Shown: positions 45,594 to 61,522, counted from the first letter of the stretch. The stretch: DNA of 64,000 nucleotides from an uncultured bacterium (GCA_937879955.1 CALFMK010000001.1:442356-506355), one strand, 5' to 3'. Numbers and translations are program-made. The notes: a model not told the origin generated them from the sequence alone.

Positions 45594-47105
45594 ATGGAAC
45601 ACGACTACAGGAGATTCTGGTTCCGCGCATCGAAGGCAATCATCGCGCTCGTACTCGCCGTATCCGTCGGCAGCACCGCGCTCCCGCAGCGCGCGCACGC
45701 CATTCTCGGCGTCGGAGACGTCGTTATCGACCCGACGAACCTCGTTCAGAACACGGTCAATGCCGTGTCTTCCGCGGCAACCCACGTTAAGGAATACGTC
45801 CTCGATACGCTCGCGTGGCAGGTCGGCAACCTCGCCATCCAGTCGATGACCAAGAGCCTCGTGAACTGGATCAATTCCGGCTTCAAGGGCTCTCCCGCAT
45901 TCGTCACCGACCTCAACAGGAATCTCCAGGGGGTAGGGGACAAGGTCGCATCCGAATTCTTCGAGTCGCTCTCGAGCAATCTCGACGGCATCACGACGAC
46001 GCCGTTCCAGGACAAGGTCATCGATGCCGTGCGTCTCGGCTACTATCTCCGCACGAGCCCGGAATCGTTCTATACGAAGTATCCGTACACGCTCAACCAG
46101 GTGAGCAGCAATGATAAGGAGTTCCTGAAGGGTAAGTTCACCGAGGGCGGCTTCAACGCGTGGTTCCAGGCTACGCTCGTGCCGCAGAACAACCCGTACG
46201 GCGCGCGCGAGCTCGCGGAGAAGGTACTCTCCGAGCAGGTCGGGACCCAGGTGCAGATCCGCACGCGTGAGCTCGACTGGGGCAAGGGGTTCCTCTCATG
46301 GAGAGGGGACTGCGTCGCGACGACGCGCTCCGTGAGCGCCGCGGCTGACGCCATGAACGCTACCGGCGACGAGGAGCCGGTCGACCTCAGCGGCGAGGAC
46401 GAGTGCCTCGGCTATGAGGTGAAGACCCCGGGCTCGGTCATCATGGAAGCGATCCCGAACAGCATGCAGGCGAATATGAACCGGCTCGTGTCGGCTGATG
46501 AGCTCAATGAGATCGTCGGCGCGCTCATGAACCAGCTCATCGGCCAGGTGCTCGGCAGCGGCAGCGGGGGAGGAGGGCTCAGCGGCCTATCGCGCCCTTC
46601 GGCAGGCGGCGGCGCATCCGTTCTCGATCAGGCCACTGATTCCTCTCAGGCAGGAAGCACCCAGGGTATCAGCAGTACTTTCGCCGCGACCCTCAGCAAC
46701 CAGCGCAAGTACGTCGCGGAGTATCAGGCAGGATGGGATACGATCCGCACGGCGGCCCAGGCCGTGCCGCAGCGCTGCTCGACGAGCGGTTCCCCGTCCC
46801 CGCAGGATCTCATAGCGCGCTCGGGAGAAGCGCTCGTGCAGGCCGCGAACGGACTCGCCGCGCTCGACGCGCTCCAGACTCGCCTTACTGCAGCCCTCGA
46901 CGCAGGCGGCAGCCAGACTACGACCCTCCTCGCGATATCGGAGGACTATAACGAGCTCACCAGTTCGGATACGCTCCCGAGCGCCGAGGCTATTGCCGAA
47001 GCGCAGACAGAATCGAAGGACAGCGGGCAAAGCGAGCAGGTATCCTTCTACACCCAGATGACGCGTCTCGCATCGAGCCGCACCTGCGACGTCTCGGACG
47101 AATAA
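45594..47105 (+). CDS. Secreted hypothetical protein (503 aa) with a Gly/Ser-rich segment
   Basis: Signal peptide ...ALPQRAHA; no recognisable motif; 3 nt after the upstream gene. Confidence 0.55.
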   Translation: MEHDYRRFWFRASKAIIALVLAVSVGSTALPQRAHAILGVGDVVIDPTNLVQNTVNAVSSAATHVKEYVLDTLAWQVGNLAIQSMTKSLVNWINSGFKGSPAFVTDLNRNLQGVGDKVASEFFESLSSNLDGITTTPFQDKVIDAVRLGYYLRTSPESFYTKYPYTLNQVSSNDKEFLKGKFTEGGFNAWFQATLVPQNNPYGARELAEKVLSEQVGTQVQIRTRELDWGKGFLSWRGDCVATTRSVSAAADAMNATGDEEPVDLSGEDECLGYEVKTPGSVIMEAIPNSMQANMNRLVSADELNEIVGALMNQLIGQVLGSGSGGGGLSGLSRPSAGGGASVLDQATDSSQAGSTQGISSTFAATLSNQRKYVAEYQAGWDTIRTAAQAVPQRCSTSGSPSPQDLIARSGEALVQAANGLAALDALQTRLTAALDAGGSQTTTLLAISEDYNELTSSDTLPSAEAIAEAQTESKDSGQSEQVSFYTQMTRLASSRTCDVSDE

Positions 47106-47109
47106 CGCC

Positions 47110-49371
47110 ATGAGGAGCCCTCTCTCATTCGTACGGACAGCGATCCTCTCGGCCGCCCTGGTCCTGACACTGTTCGTAGGCGCATTTCCTGCAAATGCTC
47201 AGGTAACATATACCGACAAGCGCGGAGCGTCCTGCACCAGCTCCAGCCGGACGGTGAGCACGACGAACATCTCTACGACTGTATGTACCTTCCCGGACGG
47301 CACGAAAGAGACATGCGAGGTATCAGGATCTTCTGAGATGGGACCGAGTCCCGCGACCTGCGAGACCGTCTATCCGGACGGAAGGACGGTCTCCGGAACC
47401 TATACCGGCATCGTCGATACGAGCTGCGAGAAGGACGCGGACGGGAAGTGCAAGGAGGGCACGACGCAGGTGAACTCTCCAGCCCTAGGAGCTGCCGTGA
47501 ATGCGGTCGTGGACACCGCGAGCGACATAGTCGTGAAGCCGGTTATCTCGTTCGTTCTCGGCTTCGCTACTTTCATGCTCGGTATCGCGGGCGTGTTCTT
47601 CAACCAGGTCATGATAAAGACGGTGTTCCAGTTCAGCACGTACTTCGGCTCCTCCGAAGGACTCCTGACCGCATGGGGCGTCATGCGCGACGTCGCGAAC
47701 ATCGGCCTCCTGTTCGGTTTCATATTCATGGGAGTCCTGCTAATACTCAATGTCGACGGGGGAGGGCATGGCCACGGGCATGGCGGCGGCATCAGCGCGA
47801 AGCGCGCCATCCCGCGCCTCATTATCTTCGCCGTCCTCCTGAACTTCAGTCTCTTCGCGTCCCAGGCGGTCATCGACGTCTCGAACGCGTTCGCGTCCAC
47901 CTTCACGACCCTCGCCGGCGCAGCCTGCGATGATAATGCATCCGCGACAGACGGGGACAACGCCTGCGCGAATGTCGGTATCGCAGGAAAGGTGATGCAG
48001 CTGGCCGGCATAGCCACCATCTGGAACCCTGACATCGATGCAAGCCCTACGGTACTTCTCGGGCTTACCATATTCGTCCTAATAACGATGGTCGTGCTCC
48101 TTGCGGCAGGTCTCATGCTCGTATTCCGCGTCGTGGTACTCACCATGCTCATGGTCACGTCTCCGATCGGCTTCGCCGGCATGGTCATACCGGGCCTACA
48201 AGGGCTCGCGAGCCGCTGGTGGCACATGCTCATATCGCAGTCCTTCTTCGCCCCGGTGATGCTCCTCCTCGTGTTCATAAGCCTCAAGATGGCAGAGTCC
48301 CTGAATCCGAACGGCGCGCCGCTCGTGGACGCGTTCGCCGGAGCGAACACCACCATGGCCGGGAACCTCGAGGTGCTCGTCGTATTCGCGGTCGTCATCG
48401 GTCTCATGATCAGCTCGCTCATCGTTGCCGCGAAGATGGGCGCGACAGGCGCATCGTTTGCGACCAATACGGCAAGCGCGGTCACGTTCGGCGCCCTTAC
48501 GCGCGTCACGAATGCCAGTGTCGGAGGCACCGCGCGCGGGCTGCGTGCAGCGCAGCAGAGCCAGTGGGCAAGCAGGGTAGGGACCCGCGTGCTCGGCGTA
48601 CGCGGCGCTGCCGTAGCGGGCAAGGTTGGCGAAGTCGCCGTGAACCGGGTGCTCCGTCCGGTCGAGAAGGCGAACATGGATGTGCGGCGCGCGCCTGGCA
48701 TGGGGGCGATCCTCGGCGCAGCCGGCGTTACCGCAGGCGCGAAGCCCGCAGAGCACGCGACATACGGCGACATGGCGCATCAGGTCACCGATATCCGCGG
48801 CGGCGCAGGCGGCAAGAAGCTTGAGGCCGAATACAAGAAGGAGGTCAAGTACGCATCGCTCGAGGGCCTCGCACACGATGACAAGCTCAATGAGGATACC
48901 GCAGAGGCGAAGGAGGCCCGGAAGCTCCTCACGTCGCTCTCGACGAAGGAGCTCGAGGCGCTCCACGGCATCCAGGAGGGTGTCTCTCAGATGGCACAGA
49001 ACCTCACGCCCGAGCAGCTCGAGAATCTCCAGAAGAGCGACAAGCTCGATGACGGACAGAAGCGTACGCTCAAGGAGAAGTACGAGGAGAAGTTCGCCGG
49101 CGACAACGCGAAGCGAACGATTCCAGGTATGAATGCCGAAGGTATCGCGAAGCTCGGCGGGGGTACCGTTTCGAAAACAGAGGTACTTGGGACCATGACT
49201 GGCCGTCAGCTCGCCGCGATCAATCCGGACAAGCTGAACGCTACTCAACTCGCGACTGTACAGGCATATATCAAGAGTCAGCGCACAGCGGGCACTCCTG
49301 CCGGGAAGGAATTCGAAATGCTCCTTATCGGGAACCCAAAGACGAAGGAGCGGTGGGGAGGCTTGGTATAA
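47110..49371 (+). CDS. VirB6/TrbL-like polytopic membrane protein with an N-terminal secreted Cys-containing domain, a GGGHGHGHGGG loop and a long charged cytoplasmic tail
   Basis: 753 aa; signal peptide, about 6-8 TM helices in the middle, K/E-rich C-terminal 250 aa. Confidence 0.5.
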   Translation: MRSPLSFVRTAILSAALVLTLFVGAFPANAQVTYTDKRGASCTSSSRTVSTTNISTTVCTFPDGTKETCEVSGSSEMGPSPATCETVYPDGRTVSGTYTGIVDTSCEKDADGKCKEGTTQVNSPALGAAVNAVVDTASDIVVKPVISFVLGFATFMLGIAGVFFNQVMIKTVFQFSTYFGSSEGLLTAWGVMRDVANIGLLFGFIFMGVLLILNVDGGGHGHGHGGGISAKRAIPRLIIFAVLLNFSLFASQAVIDVSNAFASTFTTLAGAACDDNASATDGDNACANVGIAGKVMQLAGIATIWNPDIDASPTVLLGLTIFVLITMVVLLAAGLMLVFRVVVLTMLMVTSPIGFAGMVIPGLQGLASRWWHMLISQSFFAPVMLLLVFISLKMAESLNPNGAPLVDAFAGANTTMAGNLEVLVVFAVVIGLMISSLIVAAKMGATGASFATNTASAVTFGALTRVTNASVGGTARGLRAAQQSQWASRVGTRVLGVRGAAVAGKVGEVAVNRVLRPVEKANMDVRRAPGMGAILGAAGVTAGAKPAEHATYGDMAHQVTDIRGGAGGKKLEAEYKKEVKYASLEGLAHDDKLNEDTAEAKEARKLLTSLSTKELEALHGIQEGVSQMAQNLTPEQLENLQKSDKLDDGQKRTLKEKYEEKFAGDNAKRTIPGMNAEGIAKLGGGTVSKTEVLGTMTGRQLAAINPDKLNATQLATVQAYIKSQRTAGTPAGKEFEMLLIGNPKTKERWGGLV

Positions 49372-49383
49372 TCGGTAGCATCC

Positions 49384-50214
49384 ATGCACACCGATCAGGA
49401 AGTCAGTAGAGCATATGATCTCGCGCCGAAGGCGATACAGGACGCATTGAGCGACGGGCCTGCCGTCGACTTCATGGTGAACCTGCAGTCGCGCTACGGT
49501 CTTCATGTCGATGTCGCAGGAAGCATCGTGAGCCGTATACGCGATCTGCTTCTCGGGCTCGCGAACCCTACGGAGTTCCTCGGCGAGCTCATACAGCTCG
49601 GTCTCACCGATACGGTCGCGCGCGCTATCGTAGCCGACCTGAACAAGGAGGTATTCGTCCCGCTTCGCGAGGCGATGCGGAATGCGCCCGAAGAGCCGAA
49701 GGCGGCGGTCGAGCCCATTTCCGTACCTCAGCAATCACTGAGCCCTAAGGAGACCGTTCCTGCACCGACGCTCGCGTACGAGCCTAGGCCTGCGCCCGTA
49801 ACGCTTCCAGGCTCTCCGGTAGAAGCGCCGATGCCTGCAGCTCCTGCGTCGTTGCCGACCTATTCAGTGCCGGAGTCCGCACCTGTCGCACCATCCGTGC
49901 CGCATCCTGCATATCCTGCGCCAAGTGCGCCGCAGCCAGGATGGCATTCCGCCGCTGCCGTCCATATCTACGTGCCGAGCCACGGCGTCCCGTTCGAGCA
50001 GATGCATACCCCAGTGCCTATCGAAGCGAAGGAAATAGCTCCTGTTACGGCTCCGCTGTCGTCTGCGCCTACACCCGTTCCCCAGGCCTACGTACCAGCT
50101 CCGGCCATAGCAGCGCCCGAGCCAGTATCTGCTCCCATACCTGCGGCAACTACGCTGGCTCCGGCTCCAATAACCAAGGATTACGCCGCCGATCCGTATC
50201 GCGAACCGATCTAG
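49384..50214 (+). CDS. Pro-rich hypothetical protein
   Basis: 276 aa; globular N-terminal 90 aa then PAP/PVP low-complexity. Confidence 0.45.
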   Translation: MHTDQEVSRAYDLAPKAIQDALSDGPAVDFMVNLQSRYGLHVDVAGSIVSRIRDLLLGLANPTEFLGELIQLGLTDTVARAIVADLNKEVFVPLREAMRNAPEEPKAAVEPISVPQQSLSPKETVPAPTLAYEPRPAPVTLPGSPVEAPMPAAPASLPTYSVPESAPVAPSVPHPAYPAPSAPQPGWHSAAAVHIYVPSHGVPFEQMHTPVPIEAKEIAPVTAPLSSAPTPVPQAYVPAPAIAAPEPVSAPIPAATTLAPAPITKDYAADPYREPI

Positions 50215-50277
50215 GGCGCGCTCGCGCCTGTCCACACGCCAGGTGCCCGCGATTGTCGGAGCTGCTATGCTTTCCGC

Positions 50278-50874
50278 ATGAACGGATACGAATCAGTAGC
50301 GAGGAGGGAGGAGCGCGAACCCTCCGAGAGGGAGGAAGAAGCGGTCGGAACGGGCTCGTTCGAGCCGGTATATCCGCCACCACCCACATCCGAGGAGATA
50401 GCGAGGAAGGAAGCGCTCATAGCCGGCATGCACAGGCCTGAGGCGGCTAACGACAACCAGTTCGCTGCGAATGATAACGAGACGGCGATACATCCGACAC
50501 AGGCGAGCGAGCGCGGACACGCGGAGATTCATGAGGAGCACGGGAAGCAGGAAACCGCCCATTCTCATGAGGCGGCCGGCGGGGGCGCGGGGGGCAGCGG
50601 AGGAGACCACGGAAGCGAGCACGGCGGTGATAATCACGGAGGGAATGAAGGTGGCGGCCACGGCGGGGACCATGGTCATCATGGCGGACATCACCACGAG
50701 AATCCGTGGATCAAATGGGGGGTGAAGCAGCCGATCGCGATCTTCGGCTTCCTCATCTCGCTCGTCGTCCAGGGCGTGAAGCGCTGGGGCGAGATGGCTG
50801 GGAAGGGCGGAGGTGGCGGAGGGGGTGGCCACGGTGGGGGAGGTGGTGGTCACGGAGGAGGTGGCCATCACTAG
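50278..50874 (+). CDS. Gly/His-rich (GGGHG)n protein with one TM helix
   Basis: 198 aa; acidic N-terminus, HGGDNHGGNEGGGHGGDHGHHGGHHHE, TM helix PIAIFGFLISLVVQGV, C-terminal GGGGGGGGHGGGGGGHGGGGHH. Confidence 0.5.
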   Translation: MNGYESVARREEREPSEREEEAVGTGSFEPVYPPPPTSEEIARKEALIAGMHRPEAANDNQFAANDNETAIHPTQASERGHAEIHEEHGKQETAHSHEAAGGGAGGSGGDHGSEHGGDNHGGNEGGGHGGDHGHHGGHHHENPWIKWGVKQPIAIFGFLISLVVQGVKRWGEMAGKGGGGGGGGHGGGGGGHGGGGHH

Positions 50875-50938
50875 CGTCCACACGATTCTCATATGCGAAC
50901 AGGCAGCCGGCATCCGCCGGCTGCTATACTTATAGGCA

Positions 50939-51349
50939 ATGGAGTACCAGGTACCGCAGTTCATCGAGGTTGAGGACAAGATCTTCGGGCCGTTCACGCT
51001 CAAGCAGTTCATCTATATCGCCGGCGGGGTAGGGCTCTGCGCCATCCTCCTCCTCTATCTTCCGCTCATTCTGGGCATCGTACTCGCCGTCCCGGTCGCC
51101 GTGCTCACTGCAGCGCTCGCGTTCTACAAGGTGAACAACAAGCCGTTCGTCGAGATAATCGAGGCCGCTTTCACCTATTACATCGGCGACCGCCTCTATC
51201 TCTGGAAGAAGGAGAAGAACGCTCCGTCCGCTCCTGCGCCCGTGACAAAGCCGGCCGATCCGACGAAGCTCGGTCTCACCCAGAGCAAGCTCAAGGACCT
51301 CGCCTGGTCCCTCGACATCAAGGACCGGGAAGGGAATAACACGCCGTAG
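50939..51349 (+). CDS. PrgI/VirB3-like small membrane protein
   Basis: 136 aa; MEYQVPQFIEVEDKIFGPFTLKQFIYI plus two TM helices; sits immediately 5' of the VirB4-like gene. Confidence 0.65.
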   Translation: MEYQVPQFIEVEDKIFGPFTLKQFIYIAGGVGLCAILLLYLPLILGIVLAVPVAVLTAALAFYKVNNKPFVEIIEAAFTYYIGDRLYLWKKEKNAPSAPAPVTKPADPTKLGLTQSKLKDLAWSLDIKDREGNNTP

Positions 51350-51352
51350 ACC

Positions 51353-51982
51353 ATGGCAGCCACCAAGACAACGCAATCGTTCGTACCCGTGAAGGAAGTC
51401 CGCAACGGCGTCATCGTCCTCAAGGATGACGGCTATCGCGGCGTCCTCATGTGCTCGTCCATAAACTTCGCGCTCAAGGGCGAGGACGAGCAGCGCGCGA
51501 TCATCGGCGGGTTCCAGAGCCTCCTGAACACGCTCGATTTCTCGATACAGATCGTGGTGCATTCCCGCAAGACCGACATCCGGCCGTATCTCGCCCTGCT
51601 CGAGACGCGCATGCAGGATCAGACCACCGAGCTCATGCGGCTCCAGCTGCGCGAGTACATCGCCTTCATCCGGAACTTCATCGACTCGAGCGACATCATG
51701 ACCAAGATGTTCTACGTCGTCGTGCCGTACGCGCCGAGCGCGGGAGTCTCGATAAAGAACGCACCCTTCCTTGGCGGACGCCCGTCGGGCGTCTCGAGCA
51801 CGAGCAGCGACCCGTTCGAGGAGCATCGCGTGCAGCTCGAGCAGCGCATGGCGCTCGTGGTGTCCGGACTCGCGTCAAGCGGCGTGCGCGCCGTGCCGCT
51901 CGGCACCGAGGAGGTCATCGAGCTCCTGTACCGCTCCTTCAACCTCTCGGAGCTCGAGAACCCTATCCACCTCAACGCATAA
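51353..51982 (+). CDS. virB4: VirB4/TrbE-like ATPase, N-terminal domain fragment (ends at an in-frame TAA)
   Basis: 209 aa; FVPVKEVRNGVIVLKDDGYRGVL...SSINFALKGEDEQ pattern typical of the VirB4 N-terminal domain; same reading frame as the next ORF. Confidence 0.65.
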   Translation: MAATKTTQSFVPVKEVRNGVIVLKDDGYRGVLMCSSINFALKGEDEQRAIIGGFQSLLNTLDFSIQIVVHSRKTDIRPYLALLETRMQDQTTELMRLQLREYIAFIRNFIDSSDIMTKMFYVVVPYAPSAGVSIKNAPFLGGRPSGVSSTSSDPFEEHRVQLEQRMALVVSGLASSGVRAVPLGTEEVIELLYRSFNLSELENPIHLNA

Positions 51983-51985
51983 CCT

Positions 51986-53812
51986 ATGGCGCTCCTCGAT
52001 TTCCTCGGAAAGAACAAGAAGGACGACGCGGCTCCGTCGGTGGCGCCCGTGCTGCCGAAGGACATCTACGCGGAAGGGGAGCTGCGTCTCGCGGACGCCA
52101 TCGCGCCGGCGGCGCTCAAGGTCGGCGCGCGCGAGCTCGAGCTGGGCGAGAAGGTCTCGCGCTCGTTCTACACGATCTCGTACCCGCGCTTCCTCGTGGA
52201 CAGCTGGTTCACCCCGATCATCAACCTCGACAAGGTCTTCGACGTCTCCATCTTCGTGCATCCGGTAGAGACCGGGTCCGCGCTCCGCGGCTTCCAGAAG
52301 AAGGTGGCCGAGATCGAGAGCCAGATAGCCGACAGGGAAGAGAAGGGGTTAGTGCGCGACCCGATGCTTGATACCGCGTACCGCGACCTCGAGCAGCTGC
52401 GCGACCAGCTCCAGCAAGCGGAGGAGCACATCTTCGAGGTAGGTCTCTACATAACCCTCTACGGGAACAATAAGGATGAGCTCGACAAGATCGAGGCGGA
52501 CGTGCGCGGCATCCTCGACTCGAAGCTCGTGTATACGAAGCCGGCCCTCTTCCAGCAGGAGCAGGGCTTCCGCTCCACGCTCCCGATCGCGACCGACGAG
52601 CTCCAGGTGACGAGCAAGCTCAATTCCTCGCCGCTCTCCTCCATATTCCCGTTCGTCTCCTTCGACCTCACGAGCGACCGCGGCATCCTCTACGGCATCA
52701 ACCGCCATAACGCGTCGCTTATCCTTTTCGACCGGTTCTCCCTCGAGAACTACAACTCCGTGGTCTTCGCGAAGTCCGGATCCGGAAAGTCCTACGCCGT
52801 GAAACTCGAGGTGCTCCGCTCGCTCATGTTCGGCACGGACGTGATCGTCATCGACCCTGAGCGCGAGTACGAGAACCTCGCTGCCGCCACCGGAGGCCGC
52901 ACCTTCAACATCTCGCTCTCATCCGAGCACCACATCAACCCGTTCGACCTGCCGCCGGTGAAGGAGGACGAGGAGCCGTCCGACATCCTCCGCTCGAGCA
53001 TTATCAACCTCGTCGGCCTCTTCCGCCTCATGCTCGGCGGGCTCACGCCCGAGGAGGACGCCATCATCGACCGCGCCATCACGGAGACCTACGCGCTCAA
53101 GGATATCACCGGAGACAGCGACTTCACCGGCATCGAGCCGCCGCTCCTCTCCGATTTCGAGAACGTGCTCTCGGGCATGGAGGGTTCCGAGTCGCTCGTC
53201 ATCCGCCTTTCCAAATACACGCACGGGACCTGGGCCGGATTCATAAACCAGCCGACCAACGTCGATATCAACAAGCAGTTCATCGTCTTCTCGGTGCGCG
53301 ACATGGAGGACGAGCTCAAGCCGATCGCGATGTACATCATCACGCACTACATCTGGAACGCGGTCCGCCACGAGCTCAGGAAGCGACTCCTCGTCATCGA
53401 CGAGGCATGGTGGATGATGAAGTCGGAGGACACCGCGTCCTTCCTCTACAGCCTCGCCAAGCGCGGCCGCAAGTACTATCTCGGCGTCGCGACCATCACC
53501 CAGGATGTGGAGGACTTCCTTCGCTCGCCGTACGGCCGTCCGATCCTCACGAACTCATCGATGCAGCTCCTCCTCAAGCAGTCCCCGACGACGATCAACG
53601 TCCTCAAGGAGACGTTCAACCTCACCGAGGAGGAGAAGTTCCTCCTGCTCGAGTCCGGGGTGGGGGAGGGTCTCTTCTTCGCGGGCCTCAAGCACGTCGC
53701 CATCAAGGTCGTCGCGTCCTATACCGAGGACCAGATCATCACGTCGGACCCGAGCCAGCTCCTGCAGATAAAGCGCGAGAAGGAGCGCAACGACGCAGGG
53801 CTCGCGGTCTAG
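51986..53812 (+). CDS. virB4: VirB4/TrbE/CagE-like T4SS ATPase, ATPase domain fragment
   Basis: 608 aa; Walker A AKSGSGKS, Walker B LLVIDEAW, conserved C-terminal region. Confidence 0.85.
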   Translation: MALLDFLGKNKKDDAAPSVAPVLPKDIYAEGELRLADAIAPAALKVGARELELGEKVSRSFYTISYPRFLVDSWFTPIINLDKVFDVSIFVHPVETGSALRGFQKKVAEIESQIADREEKGLVRDPMLDTAYRDLEQLRDQLQQAEEHIFEVGLYITLYGNNKDELDKIEADVRGILDSKLVYTKPALFQQEQGFRSTLPIATDELQVTSKLNSSPLSSIFPFVSFDLTSDRGILYGINRHNASLILFDRFSLENYNSVVFAKSGSGKSYAVKLEVLRSLMFGTDVIVIDPEREYENLAAATGGRTFNISLSSEHHINPFDLPPVKEDEEPSDILRSSIINLVGLFRLMLGGLTPEEDAIIDRAITETYALKDITGDSDFTGIEPPLLSDFENVLSGMEGSESLVIRLSKYTHGTWAGFINQPTNVDINKQFIVFSVRDMEDELKPIAMYIITHYIWNAVRHELRKRLLVIDEAWWMMKSEDTASFLYSLAKRGRKYYLGVATITQDVEDFLRSPYGRPILTNSSMQLLLKQSPTTINVLKETFNLTEEEKFLLLESGVGEGLFFAGLKHVAIKVVASYTEDQIITSDPSQLLQIKREKERNDAGLAV

Positions 53813-53815
53813 CGT

Positions 53816-54289
53816 ATGCAGCAGCGGATAGGGAACGTCACGGCAGGAGCGATCATCGCGATCGCCCTGATCATCGACGGCCTCCAGTTCCTGCTCACCC
53901 TCACGGTCGTAGGGTCCATCATCGCCGCGGCCATGACCTTCCTCGCCGGATTCGGCTTCTGGCTCTGGTTCTCCATCCTCGGCGTGAAGTACATGGGCAA
54001 GGAAGGGAACAAGAAGCTCCTCATAAGCCTCACGGCGTTCATCACGGAGCTTATTCCTATCGTGGACGCGCTCCCCGCGACCACGCTCGGCGTCGTACTG
54101 ATCATCATCCAGACGCGCATTGAGGACGCCCGGGCGAACGCTGGGAAGAAGGTGACGCAGCGGACCGCGCTCGCGGCGGTACGCAGCCAGAAGATGCAAG
54201 CCGCGAGGGCCCAGAGAGCGGACGCGGCACGCGCATCTAGGGAAGAGGCGCAGCAGGCGCGCCACGCGCCAGCGAACGAGACTGCGTAG
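53816..54289 (+). CDS. Small polytopic membrane protein, hypothetical
   Basis: 157 aa; 3-4 TM helices then an R/A/Q-rich tail. Confidence 0.5.
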   Translation: MQQRIGNVTAGAIIAIALIIDGLQFLLTLTVVGSIIAAAMTFLAGFGFWLWFSILGVKYMGKEGNKKLLISLTAFITELIPIVDALPATTLGVVLIIIQTRIEDARANAGKKVTQRTALAAVRSQKMQAARAQRADAARASREEAQQARHAPANETA

Positions 54290-54343
54290 CCATACCCACG
54301 CCCAGTGAGGGAAGTAGCGCATCGCACGGTATATACTGTGTCC

Positions 54344-55330
54344 ATGACACGTACCGTGCTTCTCATGCTGCTCCTGCTCGCGGGCTCCGTCGCGCCGGTC
54401 GCGCTCGCGCAGGGCCTCCCAAGCGACGACCCGCTCACGGTATCCATAGCCCCGTCGTATCCGCGCCCGTACCAGACCGTCACCGTGACCCCAGGAAGCA
54501 CGCTTCTCGATCTCTCGTCGAGCAAGGTGAAGGTGTCCGTGAACGGCACGAACGTGTATGAAGGGAGCGGCACCCAGCCGACGAACGTGCGGGCGGGCGG
54601 GCTCGGCGAGAAAACGACCGTCGTCGTGACGGTGACCGATCCTGCGGGCGGGACCTACACGAAGACGCAGGTCATCCGGCCTGCCGAGGTGTCCCTCGTC
54701 ATGGAACCGGCGTCGACCGTGCATCCCTTCTATCAGGGAGGGGCACTCGTCGCGTCCGAGGGCCGCGTGCGTCTCGTAGCGGTCGCGGACCTGAGGAGCG
54801 CGCCGGGTACCCGTCTCCCGGCTTCCTCGCTCGTCTATACCTGGCGACTCGGCGACCGCGTCCTTACGGATGCCTCGGGAATCGGGCGCACGACCCTCAT
54901 AGCGACTGCGCCCGTACGCTATCGCAACGCCGACATCACCGTGACCGTGACGAGTCCGGACAGCGCGCTCGTAGGAGAGGCCGTGACGCGCATCGCGGCC
55001 ACCGACCCGGTCGTACGCATCTACCGCAACGACCCGCTGCTCGGCCCGAACTTCGACGTCGCGCTCTCTAATCGATTCTCCATGCCTGATACCGAGGCCA
55101 CCTTCCGCGCCGTCGGCTACTTCTTCGCCGTGCCGCCCGCGTTCGCCTGGGCGGTGAACGGTACCCCGAACGGGACCGATAAGGACATCACGGTCCGCGC
55201 GACCGGAAGTGGGCAGGGGACCGCGCGTCTCGATCTCACGGCGACCGAGACGGCGAGCCGCCGTAACGCGGAGAGCCAGGTCACAATCGACTTCGGCTCC
55301 GCTACCGGCTTCGGGTTCTTCGGCCTCTAA
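54344..55330 (+). CDS. Secreted beta-rich hypothetical protein
   Basis: Signal peptide MTRTVLLMLLLLAGSVAPVALAQ (the track start at 54305 is the alternative); T/V-rich, probably beta-sandwich repeats. Confidence 0.5.
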   Translation: MTRTVLLMLLLLAGSVAPVALAQGLPSDDPLTVSIAPSYPRPYQTVTVTPGSTLLDLSSSKVKVSVNGTNVYEGSGTQPTNVRAGGLGEKTTVVVTVTDPAGGTYTKTQVIRPAEVSLVMEPASTVHPFYQGGALVASEGRVRLVAVADLRSAPGTRLPASSLVYTWRLGDRVLTDASGIGRTTLIATAPVRYRNADITVTVTSPDSALVGEAVTRIAATDPVVRIYRNDPLLGPNFDVALSNRFSMPDTEATFRAVGYFFAVPPAFAWAVNGTPNGTDKDITVRATGSGQGTARLDLTATETASRRNAESQVTIDFGSATGFGFFGL

Positions 55331-55335
55331 TACCT

Positions 55336-56250
55336 ATGAAATACCTCTCTTTCCTTACGCTCCTCATCCTGTTCCCGGCGCTCGCGCTCGCCGCGACGAC
55401 GACGGACACCTCCTTCGTACCGCTCACCAATATCCCGGCCCTATTCGAGACCGGCAACCAGTTCAATCTCCAGGATTTCCTCAACGGCCTGTACCGGATA
55501 TGCATCGGCGCAGCGGCCGTCATCGCGGTCCTCCAGATCATGCGCGCGGGCATCATGTACATGGGAGGGGACAGCGTCACCGAGAAGAAGGAGGCGCGCA
55601 ACCTCATCGGCCTCGCCATCGGCGGTCTCATCCTCGTGCTGTCGCCGGTTATCGTCTTCTCGATAATCAATCCTGAGATCCTGTCGCTTCAGATCGGCGG
55701 CATCGACAAGCTGCAGACCGCTGACGACATGGGTGGATCGAACGTCTGTACCCCCGCATGCACGGGAGGGAACAGGTGCATGAGCGGACAGTGCGTCCCG
55801 CCCAACGACGGGGACGGCACCTGCAAGGCGGACTGCGTCGCCGGACGGGTCTGCAAGGCAGGCGCCTGCGTCGCGGTATCCGCCGAGAGCTGCACGTCTA
55901 CCATAGCGAACGGCGCGCCGGTGAAGACCATAGCGCAGCAGAACTGCTGCGCTATACAGACCGGGTGCAAGGTAACCATAGGTACCGGAGGCGCGTTCGC
56001 GGATCCAGTATGCTCCTGCTCGCCGACCGGCGCGATAGAATACGGATGGAGGTACACCGCCTTGTATAACGATAATGGCAGCCTCAAGACGGGAACCTTC
56101 AAGAAGGGACCCTTCACGTCTAACGAGAGCTGCGTGGCGTCGCTCACCGCATTCAAGAAGGAATACGACCCGAAGACCGGGGATAATTACACGAGAGAGT
56201 GCGACTGCGGACGCCCGCTCTCCGACCAGCAAGGATGCAGTCCTTTCTAG
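55336..56250 (+). CDS. VirB2/TrbC-like pilin-architecture protein fused to a C-terminal Cys-rich domain
   Basis: Signal peptide plus two hydrophobic helices (ICIGAAAVIAVLQIM, LIGLAIGGLILVLSPVIVFSII), then about 20 Cys in 180 aa. Confidence 0.5.
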   Translation: MKYLSFLTLLILFPALALAATTTDTSFVPLTNIPALFETGNQFNLQDFLNGLYRICIGAAAVIAVLQIMRAGIMYMGGDSVTEKKEARNLIGLAIGGLILVLSPVIVFSIINPEILSLQIGGIDKLQTADDMGGSNVCTPACTGGNRCMSGQCVPPNDGDGTCKADCVAGRVCKAGACVAVSAESCTSTIANGAPVKTIAQQNCCAIQTGCKVTIGTGGAFADPVCSCSPTGAIEYGWRYTALYNDNGSLKTGTFKKGPFTSNESCVASLTAFKKEYDPKTGDNYTRECDCGRPLSDQQGCSPF

Positions 56251-56253
56251 ACC

Positions 56254-57474
56254 ATGAACCGACGCATACTCATCATCATCGCAAGCATCATCGTCGTCCT
56301 CGGACTCGTCGTTGGAGCGTACTACCTGTTCTTCAGCAAAGGCGCGACGCTCACGGTAGGGAACCCGGGAGACCTCTTCGGGGGAAGCGGGGACCGTCCG
56401 ACGACCCTCCTCGGCCCGGACGGCGCGCCGATACAGGGCGCAGGCACCGTCGTGGCGCCGAAGCTCATCCGCATCAGCGACGCGCCGGTGGCGAAGGGCG
56501 CCATCGCGCTCTTCATCCCGGCGACCGAGCCCGCTGCCTCCTCGACCGAGCTCGCCACGCCGGCAGATACCGAGATCCGCTTCATCGAGCGCCAGAGCGG
56601 CAACGTATACGCGTTCCGCCTCCATGACCGCGTCCTTACGCGCATCTCGAACCGCACGATCCCGGGTATACAGGAAGCGACTTGGACCCTGGACGGCACG
56701 CGCGCGTTCGTGCGGTATCTCACCCGAGCCACCGACGGCACCGAGCACATCGATACGTACATGCTCCCGGCGAACGGCGGGGAAGGGTACTTCCTCGAGC
56801 AGGGGCTCGAGCAGGTCGCCGTCCAAGGGACGAGCACCGTGCTTTCCGTGCTGCCGAACACCTCCGGCTCGATCGGCTCGCTCTCGAACCCTGACGGCAC
56901 GAACCTGCGCACGCTCTTCACGTCGCCGCTCTCGCGCCTGAGCGCCGACTTCTCCGGAAGCGACATCCTCGCGACCACCAAGGGCTCGGTGACGCTCGAC
57001 GGGTACGCATTCCTCGTCTCTCGCGCGACAGGCGCCTTCACGCGCATCCTGGGACCGTACAGGGGCCTCTCCGCGGTAGCGAACCCTGAAGGGACCTCCG
57101 TCCTCTACAGCTACGCGGATCGCGGCCGCATCTACCTGCAGGTGCTCGACCTCGCGACCAGGACCGCGACCGCGCTGCCGCTGTCGACGTTCGCGGAGAA
57201 GTGCGCGTGGGCGCCCGGAGGACGCGCCGTCTACTGCGGCGTCCCGACCGCGCTCGCGGGGAACATGCCGGACGACTGGTACCAGGGCGCGGCCACGTTC
57301 TCGGACCGCATCTGGCGCATCGACCTCGATACCCGCCTCGCGACGCTCGTGGTCGATCCGGGGCAGGTAGGGGACGTCGCCATCGACGCGGTCTCGCTCA
57401 CGGTAGACCCTATCTCCGACGCGCTCGTGTTCACCAACAAGAAGGACGGATCGCTCTGGGCGTACGATCTTTAG
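56254..57474 (+). CDS. N-terminally membrane-anchored hypothetical protein, probably beta-propeller-like
   Basis: 406 aa; TM helix IIIASIIVVLGLVVGAYYLFF; last gene of the cluster. Confidence 0.5.
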   Translation: MNRRILIIIASIIVVLGLVVGAYYLFFSKGATLTVGNPGDLFGGSGDRPTTLLGPDGAPIQGAGTVVAPKLIRISDAPVAKGAIALFIPATEPAASSTELATPADTEIRFIERQSGNVYAFRLHDRVLTRISNRTIPGIQEATWTLDGTRAFVRYLTRATDGTEHIDTYMLPANGGEGYFLEQGLEQVAVQGTSTVLSVLPNTSGSIGSLSNPDGTNLRTLFTSPLSRLSADFSGSDILATTKGSVTLDGYAFLVSRATGAFTRILGPYRGLSAVANPEGTSVLYSYADRGRIYLQVLDLATRTATALPLSTFAEKCAWAPGGRAVYCGVPTALAGNMPDDWYQGAATFSDRIWRIDLDTRLATLVVDPGQVGDVAIDAVSLTVDPISDALVFTNKKDGSLWAYDL

Positions 57475-57486
57475 TGAGTTATGGAT

Positions 57487-57520
57487 AAGAAAAGAGCCCG
57501 TATATACGGGCTCTTTTCTT
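57487..57520. terminator. Palindromic bidirectional terminator between the T4SS-like operon and yidC
   Basis: aagaaaagagcccgta-ta-tacgggctcttttctt. Confidence 0.7.
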
Positions 57521-57522
57521 AT

Positions 57523-58266
57523 CTAGGCCGAAGCCTCTGGAAGAGGGGTGACCTTCTTCCTCCGCACGATGTACTCCTGCAGTATCCCGACCAAATTGCT
57601 CGTTATGAAGTAGAGGGAGATGGCGACGGAGGTGTAGTACGCGGCGATGCCGATGAATACCGGGAGAATGAAGCGCATCTGGGTCGCCATGGCGCGACCA
57701 AAGTCGGCCTGCATGTCGGTCCCTTCCTTCTTCGTGCTCTTCTCAGGAACCGGTATCGCGTAGAGGCCGTACAGGAACTGGGTGAGGGCGGCAAGGAAGG
57801 CGAGCGTGATGCTCGCACCCAGGATAGCGAACGTGCCGAGGAAGAGAGGGGAGATGGCGTCAGGCACCGGCACGAACGAGTAGAGGACGGACGTGTCCAC
57901 GGTAAGGAGCGTCTTGCTCTTGAAGACCCAGTAGAGCGAGATGACGACCGGGAGCTGGATGAGGAGGGTGAGGATGCCGGCGAACGGATTCACGCCGTAC
58001 TTCTTGTAGAGCGCGAACATCTGCTTCGCCTGCTCCTCCTTGTCGTCCTTCAGCGTCTCGCGGATCTGCTTCATCTCGGGCTCGATGGCCTTGATGGCGC
58101 GCTGGGTGCGGAGCGCCGCGAAGGAGAGCGGCATGATGATGACCTTCACGATCAGGGTCGCCGCGATAACGGCGAGCCCGATATCCTGTCCGGGCAGGAT
58201 ATCCGTGAGGCCCATGAGAAGGTTATAGATCGGCGTATAGAGAACGGTATGGAAGAAGGACGTCAT
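57523..58266 (-). CDS. yidC: Membrane protein insertase YidC (short, Gram-positive/CPR type)
   Basis: 247 aa; 5 TM helices, conserved YidC/Oxa1 core. Confidence 0.88.
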   Translation of the reverse strand: MTSFFHTVLYTPIYNLLMGLTDILPGQDIGLAVIAATLIVKVIIMPLSFAALRTQRAIKAIEPEMKQIRETLKDDKEEQAKQMFALYKKYGVNPFAGILTLLIQLPVVISLYWVFKSKTLLTVDTSVLYSFVPVPDAISPLFLGTFAILGASITLAFLAALTQFLYGLYAIPVPEKSTKKEGTDMQADFGRAMATQMRFILPVFIGIAAYYTSVAISLYFITSNLVGILQEYIVRRKKVTPLPEASA

Positions 58267-58301
58267 GGAAGCCAGTCTACCGTATTTCGGCCGAACCTAC
58301 C

Positions 58302-58622
58302 TTACCGGGGAAGCGTGCGCTCGAGGAGCCCGGTGAGCTCCTTCGCGAGGGCAGGGTAGTCGAGCGAGGCCGCGCCGGGGCGAGCATAGACGATGAGGAC
58401 CCGGGTAGGGGAGCACCAGGGGGCGATGACCGAGAGGGCCCGGCGCTTCAAGAGATGACGCCCGACCGAGAGCTTCGAGACCTTCTTCGAGATGACCACG
58501 GCGCAGCCCCCTTTTTCAGGGGTTTCCCGTACGGACAAGGAGAAATGGGGGCTCGCAACCCGTTTTTCGGGCCCAGAAGGCGCAAAATGCGCCCGAGTGA
58601 GGCGCATTTTCCGGTTCAACAT
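58302..58622 (-). CDS. rnpA: RNase P protein component
   Basis: [13 protein letters not shown]...ISKKVSKLSVGRHLLKRRA; its ATG overlaps the rpmH stop (TAATG); only the last 106 codons of the 320-aa track ORF are real. Confidence 0.85.
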   Translation of the reverse strand: MLNRKMRLTRAHFAPSGPEKRVASPHFSLSVRETPEKGGCAVVISKKVSKLSVGRHLLKRRALSVIAPWCSPTRVLIVYARPGAASLDYPALAKELTGLLERTLPR

Positions 58623-58759
58623 TAGACGGTGAGCTTCGCGCGTCCCTTGCGGCGGCGGCGCAGGAGGACTGCACGGCCGGTCGGGGTAGCGGTGCGGGCA
58701 CGGAATCCGTGCGTACGCGCGCGCTTGCGCTTCTTCGGCTGGTAGGTGCGCTTTGGCAT
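58622..58759 (-). CDS. rpmH: 50S ribosomal protein L34
   Basis: Own translation: [45 protein letters not shown] (45 aa); not in the ORF track. Confidence 0.9.
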
Positions 58760-58859
58760 ATGCACAGGATACTAACAGGTTGACGGGAAGGTAGCAAGGA
58801 AACGCCTCACGAGGGGACCGGTCGCGCATTTTCGAAACGCCCGTATACTTACCCTCACG

Positions 58860-60209
58860 ATGAACCGTCTCGATGCGCGCGAACTCTGGGAATACACGCT
58901 CACGCAGGTAGAGCTCTCCATCTCTCCCGCGAATTTCAACACCTGGTTCCGCGACAGCTCCATCGTGAAGATCGAGGACGGGATCGTCTATATCGGCGTC
59001 CCGAGCCAGTTCTTCCGCGACTGGTACCTCAAGAAGTTCAATATGCTCCTCCTGAAGATAATCAGGGGCGTCTCCCACGAGTACCGCAACATCGAGTACA
59101 TGATCGTGAAGGACGACCGCCGCCGCCCGAAGGAGGTGCGCCGACAGCCTCAAGCCACGGTTGAGATGCCGCTCGACGAGTTCTACATAAACAAGAGCGA
59201 CGGCCTGAATCCTCGCTATACGTTCGACACGTTCGTCGTGGGTTCCTTCAACGAGCTCGCTCATACGGCGGCGCAGGCAGCCTTAAAGCGCCCCGGTATC
59301 ATGTACAACCCGCTCTTCATCTATGGGGACACCGGAAGAGGGAAGACTCACCTGATCCAGGCCATCGGCAACCAGTTCAAGAAGCTATACCCGGGCCGCA
59401 AGGTCTACTACCTCACGGCCGAGACGTTCGGCCAGGACTACACGAACGCCATCCAGGCGGGGACGATGAACCGGTTCAAGGACAAGTACCGCCAGTACGA
59501 CCTCCTGATCATGGACGACATCCAGTTCTTCGCGAAGAAGGAGAAGACCCAGGAGGAGCTCTTCCACCTCTTCAACGCGCTCTATGACAACAACAAGCAG
59601 ATCCTCTTCTCGTCCGATAGGGCGCCGGCGGCTATCCCGGACATCGCGGATAGGCTCCGCGGCCGCTTCTCGGCCGGCATGTCCATCGACATCGGCGAGC
59701 CGGATACCGAGAGCCGCATGGCCATCGTCCGCAAGAAGGCGGCGTCCCAGGGCGTCTATCTCTCGGAAGAGGTTATCGAGCATATCGCCACGTCCATCTC
59801 AGGCTCCATCCGCGAGCTCGAGGGCGTCATAAACAGCGTCGTCTGCCACACGCAGGTGAAGGGCGTCCCGCCGGACCTCGCGGAAGTACGCCATTCCCTG
59901 CGTTCCTTCGCCCGCCCGCAGAAGACCGTGTCCGTGAAGCACGTGGTCTCGAAGGTGGCCGAGTTCTATGGCATCGACGAGGAGAGCATCTACGAGAAGA
60001 CTCGCAGAAGGGAGGTGGTGCGCCCGCGCCAGGTCATCATGTACATCCTCAGGGAGGACTTCAGCGTCTCGTACCCGACCATCGGCTCGAAGCTCGGCGG
60101 CCGCGACCACACCACGGTTATTCACTCGTGCGAGAAGGTGAAGCGGGAAGTGCAGGCGGACCCTGACCTCGCGAAGGAGATTCAGGACATCCGCAGCCTG
60201 TTGGTATAG
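58860..60209 (+). CDS. dnaA: Chromosomal replication initiator DnaA
   Basis: 449 aa; Walker A GDTGRGKTHL, domain IV helix-turn-helix at the C-terminus. Confidence 0.95.
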   Translation: MNRLDARELWEYTLTQVELSISPANFNTWFRDSSIVKIEDGIVYIGVPSQFFRDWYLKKFNMLLLKIIRGVSHEYRNIEYMIVKDDRRRPKEVRRQPQATVEMPLDEFYINKSDGLNPRYTFDTFVVGSFNELAHTAAQAALKRPGIMYNPLFIYGDTGRGKTHLIQAIGNQFKKLYPGRKVYYLTAETFGQDYTNAIQAGTMNRFKDKYRQYDLLIMDDIQFFAKKEKTQEELFHLFNALYDNNKQILFSSDRAPAAIPDIADRLRGRFSAGMSIDIGEPDTESRMAIVRKKAASQGVYLSEEVIEHIATSISGSIRELEGVINSVVCHTQVKGVPPDLAEVRHSLRSFARPQKTVSVKHVVSKVAEFYGIDEESIYEKTRRREVVRPRQVIMYILREDFSVSYPTIGSKLGGRDHTTVIHSCEKVKREVQADPDLAKEIQDIRSLLV

Positions 60210-60421
60210 CTGGGGAAAACCTATGTATAACCTTCGAAGAACCGCGGGGATATGTAGGGGAAAGCTGGGTGTAAGAAGAACTCGATTTCCGCTATCCCCA
60301 GATCGTCTCGGTGAGACGAGACCGTCATCAACAGGATGTTTTCGGGTGAAGCGCCAGGAAGCATTGAAAACAGAGGGCGGGAGGGGTTGTCCCCGGTGTC
60401 CACACCCCTAATAATAAGGAC

Positions 60422-61522
60422 ATGATCATAACTTTAGATAAGAAAGAATTCTCAGAAGGGGTGCAGACCGTCGCACGCTTCGCGGAACGAAGGAGTGGTA
60501 CGCTCCCGGTGCTCGCCGGCATCGCGATCATCGCGGGGGACGACGGCATCAAGCTGCGCGCTACGAACCTCGAGACGGGGATCGACCTCAAGGTGGATGG
60601 AACCATCAAGAGCGACGGCGTCGTCGCGCTCCAGGCCTCCACGCTCCGTGACATCGCCTCCTCGTTGTCAGGCTCCGGCACGCTCACCCTCGAGCACTCG
60701 GGCGATACGGTCCTCGTCACGACCGGGAACGGCCGCAGTACGCTCAAGACCCTTCCGTACGAGGATTTCCCTACGCTCCCGCTCCCTGAGGCGCCACGGG
60801 CGAAATTCGAGCTTCCAGGAGCGCTCCTGCGCGGCCTCGTGAATGCGGTATCGCCCTATGCGTCGGTATCCACGGTCCGCCCCGAGCTCGCGTCCGTGCT
60901 CTTGAAGAGCGAAGGCAGCAACCTCACGGCCGTCGCGACCGACTCCTTCCGTCTCGCCGAGAAGAAGATATCCCTCTCGAAGTCGGTGGAGCCGTTCTCG
61001 ATGCTCATTCCGGCGAAGAACGCGATCGATATCATGCAGACCCTGCCTGACGAGTCGATCGAGATCTCCGTGGACGAGCACCAGTGCGCGTTCTTCTGGA
61101 AGAAGGGCGTCCTCACGACCCGTCTCGTGACGGCGAACTACCCGGACTACACCCAGATCATCCCGAAGAGCTTCGTATCCGAGGCTACGGTCCTCAAGAA
61201 GGACTTCGAGGCGGCGCTCCGCCGTACGGCCATCTTCTCGGACTCGTTCCAGAAGGTGCGTCTCGGGCTCGATGCGGGTGCGAAGTCAGTGGCGCTCTCG
61301 GCGCAGAACGCGGACGTGGGCGACTCGAACGAGTCCATCCCGGCTGCGATCACGGGCGACGCGGTGGAGCTCTCGTTCAACCACCGCTATCTCTCCGCTC
61401 CTATCGGAAGCATCGCAACCGAGAGCATCACGCTTTCCGCGAGCGGCATCGGCAGGGCCATGGTCATGCGGGGCGCAGGGGATACCTCGTTCCTGTACCT
61501 CGTGATGCCGATGAATCAGTAG
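60422..61522 (+). CDS. dnaN: DNA polymerase III beta sliding clamp
   Basis: 366 aa; three-domain clamp length, immediately after dnaA. Confidence 0.93.
   Translation: MIITLDKKEFSEGVQTVARFAERRSGTLPVLAGIAIIAGDDGIKLRATNLETGIDLKVDGTIKSDGVVALQASTLRDIASSLSGSGTLTLEHSGDTVLVTTGNGRSTLKTLPYEDFPTLPLPEAPRAKFELPGALLRGLVNAVSPYASVSTVRPELASVLLKSEGSNLTAVATDSFRLAEKKISLSKSVEPFSMLIPAKNAIDIMQTLPDESIEISVDEHQCAFFWKKGVLTTRLVTANYPDYTQIIPKSFVSEATVLKKDFEAALRRTAIFSDSFQKVRLGLDAGAKSVALSAQNADVGDSNESIPAAITGDAVELSFNHRYLSAPIGSIATESITLSASGIGRAMVMRGAGDTSFLYLVMPMNQ

Follow-up and report, generated by a model that had tools for sequence, protein, structure and literature searches.

An earlier note on a 64,000-nucleotide stretch of DNA from an uncultured bacterium (GCA_937879955.1 CALFMK010000001.1:442356-506355; the whole stretch is referred to below as the window) drew attention to a TAA codon that appeared to split a VirB4-like ATPase of a type IV secretion system (T4SS) into a 209-aa N-terminal piece and a 608-aa ATPase piece, and listed as possible explanations a genuine two-piece VirB4, a recent nonsense mutation, a sequencing or assembly error and programmed readthrough. 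The question raised by this locus is whether the TAA interrupts a single gene or is the stop codon of a separate one. Both open reading frames (ORFs), the TAA, the CCT-ATG that follows it and the shared frame (frame 2, coordinate mod 3) were found in the sequence exactly as described in that note, and the combined length of the two ORFs (~818 codons) is indeed that of a classical VirB4. The features on which the analysis draws are these:

50939..51349, + strand: VirB3-like small membrane protein of the PrgI family, 136 aa; positional equivalent of pSK41 TrsC
51353..51982, + strand: 209-aa ORF for a TrsD-like / TraC-like-domain protein, ending ...PIHLNA, then TAA
51980-51982 and 51983-51985, + strand: tightly coupled gene boundary, made up of the TAA and a 3-nt spacer, CCT
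51986..53812, + strand: 608-aa ORF for a predicted VirB4-type T4SS ATPase, opening with the ATG at 51986
58759..58622, - strand: rpmH
58860..60209: dnaA
60422..61522: dnaN

The two ORFs lie within a tightly packed string of plus-strand genes (45594..58359) that has 12 junctions, at four of which (51349/51353, 51982/51986, 53812/53816 and 56250/56254) a stop codon is followed by three nucleotides and an ATG. At the first of these, the PrgI-like gene ends in TAG, which is followed by ACC and then by the ATG of the 209-aa ORF. Junctions of the stop-NNN-ATG type are common in this operon and, since one third of adjacent gene pairs lie in frame, the shared frame of the two ORFs is not beyond chance.

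The ATPase and the segment that it lacks

The 608-aa ORF matches Pfam P-loop_TraG over aa 253-555 (E 2.3e-24), carries a GSGKS (Walker A) motif and, when compared with the PDB, matches both the solved VirB4 C-terminal domain (4ag5, E 5.6e-46) and TrwK (7o41, E 2.8e-7). Its score for the NCBIfam VirB4 profile conju_CD1110, 371.2 bits, also exceeds the cut-off of 325, and aa 31-572 correspond to profile positions 183-733 of 752. On these sequence matches, we identify its product as a VirB4-type ATPase of a TrsE-like short form. Because the match to the CD1110 profile begins only at position ~183, the ATPase lacks the first ~180 positions of a single-chain VirB4, and, judged by profile matches, the missing segment is exactly the one that the 209-aa protein resembles. 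Thus, aa 8-110 of the small protein correspond to positions 2-104 of the same CD1110 profile (E 1.5e-5), and aa 5-124 to positions 102-233 of the Mbov_0397 VirB4 profile (VirB4_plasma; E 2.9e-8). Across 83 diverse relatives of the small protein, the N-terminal part of Mbov_0397 VirB4 was matched by all 83, CD1110 VirB4 by 72 and TIGR00929 VirB4_CagE by 36.

The small protein is conserved. A search for its homologues gave 4623 matches, the best 120 of which are 71-100% identical to it, are all 208-227 aa long and come from Patescibacteria/Paceibacterota/Parcubacteria assemblies; independent assemblies from different samples (P0001-P0004) encode this 209-aa product with 96-100% identity. When 1.84 billion cluster representatives (50% clustering) were searched with a profile, 3001 relatives were recovered, and the best 150 of these are nearly all stand-alone proteins of about 190-260 aa, with a single fused protein of 797 aa among them. 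The length of the C-terminus varies among relatives, a few of which have long low-complexity or disordered tails of 100-200 residues. Precomputed Pfam matches assign PF26593 (‘TraC-like’) to the 100%-identical homologue P0001 and to all of the best 120 of the 4623 homologues; a local Pfam-A scan of the ORF itself returned no family, the local copy probably lacking the PF26593 model. Taken at the sequence level, these matches identify the 209-aa product as a conserved stand-alone protein of Patescibacteria (Paceibacteria/Parcubacteria), and we interpret it as a homologue of the first ~180 residues (~180-200) of single-chain VirB4.

Sequence searches of the PDB were uninformative for the small protein, the single 209-aa sequence giving no match at E <= 10 and a profile of 83 sequences giving a chance match alone (E 0.62). 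The AlphaFold 2 model built from the 83-sequence alignment has a pLDDT of 89.5, and replaced an earlier, poor model (pLDDT 57) built from a shallow alignment of 29 sequences. When this model was used to search the PDB with Foldseek, the top 14 matches were all TrwK/VirB4 chains of the R388 T4SS (prob 0.98-1.00, TMq about 0.5, about 200 aligned columns), and the next matches had a prob of 0.3 or less. For the small protein, the N-terminal fold of TrwK/VirB4 is thus predicted with confidence.

The fused relative (P0194, 797 aa) corresponds to both pieces in a single chain. In another Patescibacteria genome, its gene follows a PrgI gene and is close to dnaA; residues 8-213 of the protein align with the 209-aa protein (39% identity) and residues 226-796 with the 608-aa ATPase (57% identity). 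In the fused protein, the small protein's last few residues and the ATPase's first 30 are missing, so that the window ATPase has an N-terminal stretch of ~30 residues (MALLDFLGKNKK...) with no counterpart in P0194. The comparison places the junction in a variable linker. We also considered whether the fused protein might stem from an alternative genetic code, and rejected this, as the linker DNA contains no in-frame stop and translates with table 11.

Together, then, the two window proteins are collinear with single-chain VirB4 proteins, including TrwK of R388, the CD1110 and Mbov_0397 families and P0194. The predicted fold of the small protein is that of part of TrwK, and for the ATPase domain there are matches to 4ag5 and 7o41. 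The difference is that the N-terminal segment of ~180 residues is a separate polypeptide in the window. The collinearity with NCBIfam profiles, the fusion in P0194, the matches of the 83 relatives and the Foldseek result all bear out the earlier suggestion that the upstream piece resembles the N-terminus of VirB4.

The gene boundary in related genomes

To compare the junction across species, 80 loci were fetched from species-representative genomes, and the junction was analysed in the 79 that hold both genes. A stop codon separates the small gene from virB4 in all 79. Its identity varies (TAA in 63, TAG in 13 and TGA in 3), as does the length of the spacer, which is 1 nt in 13 relatives, 2 nt in 12, 3 nt in 32, 4-14 nt in 16 and 19-552 nt in 6; in other words, the spacer is 1-3 nt long in 57/79 relatives, and in four other relatives 55-552 nt are inserted between the two genes. 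The genes are in frame in 42 relatives and out of frame in 37. The start of the downstream gene, an ATG with the motif MALLDF, is conserved in all, with minor variants such as MSLLDF. The closest relatives (L001-L012, 81-89% identity) have the same stop-NNN-ATG junction as the window.

A stop at the gene boundary in every relative, combined with variation in the stop codon, the spacer and the frame, rules out a nonsense mutation, a sequencing error and a conserved readthrough. We conclude with high confidence that this arrangement is an ordinary two-gene one, in which a conserved gene of its own ends normally at the TAA at 51980-51982. The first of the explanations originally listed, a genuine two-piece VirB4, was therefore the right one, since homologues are naturally split at the same point; the description of a gene split by a TAA is nevertheless misleading, as this is a known pair of genes, trsD and virB4.

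The modest excess of in-frame junctions is the sole residual oddity in these data. Compared with an expectation of one third, 42/79 gives a binomial p of 3e-4 if phylogeny is ignored, and p = 0.05 once the 12 closest relatives are dropped. Shared ancestry, together with a preference for coupled junctions of 1-3 nt, most likely explains it.

Several other readings of the locus were weighed against a two-gene VirB4. The least improbable of them, although still very unlikely, is that the 209-aa protein has become a diverged, paralogue-like accessory factor with an independent role, for example that of a regulator or of an adaptor for another component, and is no longer the N-terminal subdomain of VirB4. 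In line with this, TrsD homologues in Gracilibacteria are mostly not found beside virB4 (PMC12102498), and the disordered tails of 100-200 residues carried by some homologues would also suit such a role. Against it stand the strict adjacency of the gene to virB4, with tight spacing, in 73/79 relatives, the natural fusion of both pieces in P0194, and the fact that the part missing from the ATPase piece is precisely the one to which the small protein is similar.

A second possibility is programmed readthrough of the TAA, by which some ribosomes would make a covalent 818-aa TrsD-VirB4 fusion alongside the separate proteins. An in-frame spacer of 3 nt is the commonest single class (32/79), and in-frame junctions exceed the expected third. 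However, 37 of the 79 junctions are out of frame, four have long insertions between the genes, and the identity of the stop codon is not conserved. TAA is the strongest terminator. The RNA downstream has no unusual or stable structure 3' of the stop (fold of 51960-52080 compared with shuffled sequences, z = +0.53), the same stop-NNN-ATG spacing is found between unrelated gene pairs of the operon, and a conserved ATG start follows directly. We therefore regard programmed readthrough as very unlikely. A more limited version would confine a low level of TAA readthrough to the lineages with in-frame 3-nt spacers (the window and 32/79 relatives), where it could give a minor fused TrsD-VirB4 isoform; to this we attach an equally slight probability. 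If it were true, the minor isoform would mimic the naturally fused protein of 797 aa, and one role for it could be to seed the assembly of hexamers. The modest in-frame excess (42/79) is the only hint of such an isoform.

It is harder still to see the locus as a pseudogene, in which a point mutation to TAA recently inactivated a single virB4 of ~818 codons. In favour of such a mutation are the shared frame of the two ORFs, their summed length, which is that of a classical VirB4, and the existence of a fused relative of 797 aa. Yet the presence of the stop in all 79 related species, in 37 of them with the genes out of frame, makes it ancient and universal in the clade; the downstream ORF has its own conserved ATG and MALLDF motif in all relatives; the small protein is conserved as a stand-alone product of ~210 aa (71-100% identity in the best 120 of 4623 homologues); and in the fused form the first 30 residues of the ATPase piece are missing, not read through. 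We consider a recent nonsense mutation barely credible on this evidence. Least probable of all, with nothing specific in its favour, is a false stop created by a sequencing or assembly error, given that independent assemblies (P0001-P0004) yield the same product and that dozens of independent genomes, represented by the 79 loci with both genes, show the boundary. The comparison with 79 related genomes thus excludes all three of the explanations that had been set beside a two-piece VirB4.

Counterparts in staphylococcal plasmids and in Patescibacteria

Having a separate gene for this segment is not peculiar to the window. The Staphylococcus aureus plasmid pSK41 encodes trsC (135 aa), trsD (227 aa, ‘TrsD/TraD family conjugative transfer protein’) and trsE (672 aa) in the same order as the PrgI-like protein (136 aa), the 209-aa protein and VirB4 (608 aa) of the window. 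Common to both is a small VirB3-like membrane protein, a protein of ~210-230 aa and a VirB4 ATPase of 600-670 aa. pSK41/pGO1 represent the MPF_FATA subclass of Gram-positive conjugation systems, and there too TrsD is made as a polypeptide of its own. Residue 3 of the window ATPase aligns with residue 2 of pSK41 TrsE (E 6e-36); as the two ATPases align from their starts, the split point is homologous.

The product of 50939..51349 matches Pfam PrgI (E 2.5e-10, 41.2 bits against a cut-off of 27) and has a weak similarity to pSK41 TrsC (E 0.001). For the small protein, alignment of the 83-sequence profile to pSK41 TrsD with hhalign gave E 3.5e-5 over 172 columns, nearly the full length, at a moderate probability of 71.6%, which makes the homology to the staphylococcal prototype a remote one; with the shallow alignment the same comparison was not significant (E 0.095). 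The NCBIfam TrsD/TraD family (NF041427) was matched at E <= 0.01 by 79/83 diverse relatives (best E 8.5e-13). The 209-aa protein itself scores 16.4 bits (E 0.006; aa 6-124 on positions 14-142 of 201), and because this is far below the NF041427 cut-off of 200 bits we call it TrsD-like, that is, a remote homologue and not a member of the NCBIfam subfamily. Identity to pSK41 is low: the ATPases share 23% of their residues and the small proteins about 16%.

The two loci differ in their setting. As a conjugative plasmid, pSK41 encodes a relaxase and a coupling protein. The window locus lies on the chromosome, and neither a relaxase nor VirD4 was found among the roughly 20 ORFs scanned in the window. 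It adjoins dnaA and thus lies near the replication origin, as T4SS loci in Patescibacteria often do (PMC12102498). The PrgI family gene is located two genes upstream of the 608-aa ORF, so that the ATPase is encoded beside a VirB3-like gene, and further downstream 55336..56250 gives a weak match to TrbC/VirB2 that is below the cut-off (E 0.0013). The locus is the gene trio virB3-like (PrgI), trsD-like and virB4 of the Patescibacteria T4SS.

This arrangement is already known, having been published in 2025 (Microb Genom, ‘The type IV secretion system of Patescibacteria is homologous to the bacterial monoderm conjugation machinery’; PMC12102498). According to that study, TrsD is the most abundant T4SS component in Patescibacteria, with 2272 homologues, 1664 of them associated with virB4, and, among the MPF_FATA subclasses, occurs in only one, the prototype of which is pGO1. 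The TrsD copy of Ca. Southlakia epibionticum is listed there as essential, and the essentiality of virB4 in the same organism is cited. Compared with the Patescibacteria T4SS described in that work, the window is one more instance, with no difference of substance. VirB3-VirB4 fusion proteins, as seen in some conjugative systems, show that in evolution gene fusion and fission move the borders that separate VirB3, the N-terminus of VirB4 and its ATPase part (PMC12102498). Such a fusion is the opposite event to the fission found here; there is none in the window and none in the Patescibacteria dataset of PMC12102498.

A model for the split VirB4 and its implications

In this lineage, as in the pGO1/pSK41 class, the counterpart of the first ~180 residues of single-chain VirB4 is made as a TrsD-like polypeptide of ~210 aa, with the TrsE-like VirB4 (608 aa) starting just after it. 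These data suggest a model in which the trsD-like gene and virB4 would be co-transcribed on one mRNA and their translation tightly coupled, yielding the two proteins in matched amounts. We infer this coupling from the spacer of 1-3 nt in most relatives and from the lack of an evident Shine-Dalgarno sequence, none being visible before the ATG at 51986. The 209-aa protein would then bind the ATPase non-covalently, and probably the VirB3-like protein as well, and would in this way supply the N-terminal subdomain that anchors and organises the VirB4 hexamer at the membrane.

In practical terms, the apparent ‘broken VirB4’ calls for neither a pseudogene annotation nor an assembly-error flag, and there is no case for following it up as a site of recoding, since it is the standard pair of trsD-like gene and virB4 in the Patescibacteria T4SS. 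To the published record, the analysis adds two small points: the pair is split where staphylococcal TrsD and TrsE are split, and modelling confidently predicts a TrwK/VirB4 N-terminal fold for the small protein. The shared split point and the predicted fold lend support to the idea that TrsD is a detached subdomain of VirB4 and not an unrelated accessory protein, in a secretion system considered central to the way in which Patescibacteria live as epibionts.

Spacers, tails and insertions around the trsD-like and virB4 genes of relatives

Comparison of the junction where the trsD-like gene meets virB4 in loci from related genomes showed that four of them (L014, L020, L033 and L078) carry an extra 55-552 nt between the two genes, and some of these inserts contain an apparent small additional ORF whose start lies directly after the trsD stop. 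Three database relatives of the 209-aa protein (P0172, P0203 and P0230) possess low-complexity C-terminal tails of 150-230 residues, enriched in P, Q, A, G and E, which extend beyond the conserved domain. The presence of such free C-terminal tails in some TrsD-like proteins shows once more that the small protein exists as a polypeptide of its own.

The virB4 ORF itself was found to vary in length in two relatives. In L072 (JAJYJQ010000003.1; L072:4637-8455) it encodes 1272 aa and includes an intein that carries a homing endonuclease of the LAGLIDADG type, immediately C-terminal of the Walker A motif (GSGK|S...VHN|SYATKLE), with Pfam matches to Intein_splicing (E 3.2e-16) and LAGLIDADG_3 (E 3.6e-20). 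In L075 (L075:4630-6012) the ORF is only 460 aa long and the locus sequence runs on beyond it; this short form may reflect a frameshift, a pseudogene or a mistake in the assembly of that genome.

The remaining operon ORFs and the adjoining replication origin

Most of the other ORFs of the type IV secretion system (T4SS) operon (503, 753, 276, 198, 157, 341, 406 and 292 aa; window 45594-50874 and 53816-58359) were without a significant Pfam or NCBIfam match, and the only matches among them, both weak, were TrbJ-like (45594..47105, E 0.0019) and TrbC/VirB2-like (55336..56250, E 0.0013). The scanned ORFs included neither a recognizable relaxase nor a VirD4 coupling protein. The operon adjoins the replication-origin region (window 58622-61522), which contains the following features:

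58759..58622, minus strand, rpmH-like ORF of 45 aa
58860..60209, dnaA
60422..61522, dnaN

The fused homologue in L082, a single 797-aa TrsD-like and VirB4 chain, likewise adjoins rnpA, yidC and dnaA. A near-origin position has been reported for Patescibacteria T4SS loci (PMC12102498), and the positions in the window and in L082 agree with this.

A candidate promoter motif upstream of the PrgI-like gene

The motif GCTATRCTT lies 4-12 nt 5' of the ATG in two successive operon genes (window 50264-50280 and 50923-50941; 2 occurrences observed versus 0.07 expected), and the dnaA ATG in the window is preceded by a similar 'cgtatactt'. The motif resembles a -10-type promoter box and sits so near the start codon that transcripts may be leaderless or nearly leaderless. 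The PrgI-TrsD-VirB4 unit may thus have its own promoter, at ~50925.
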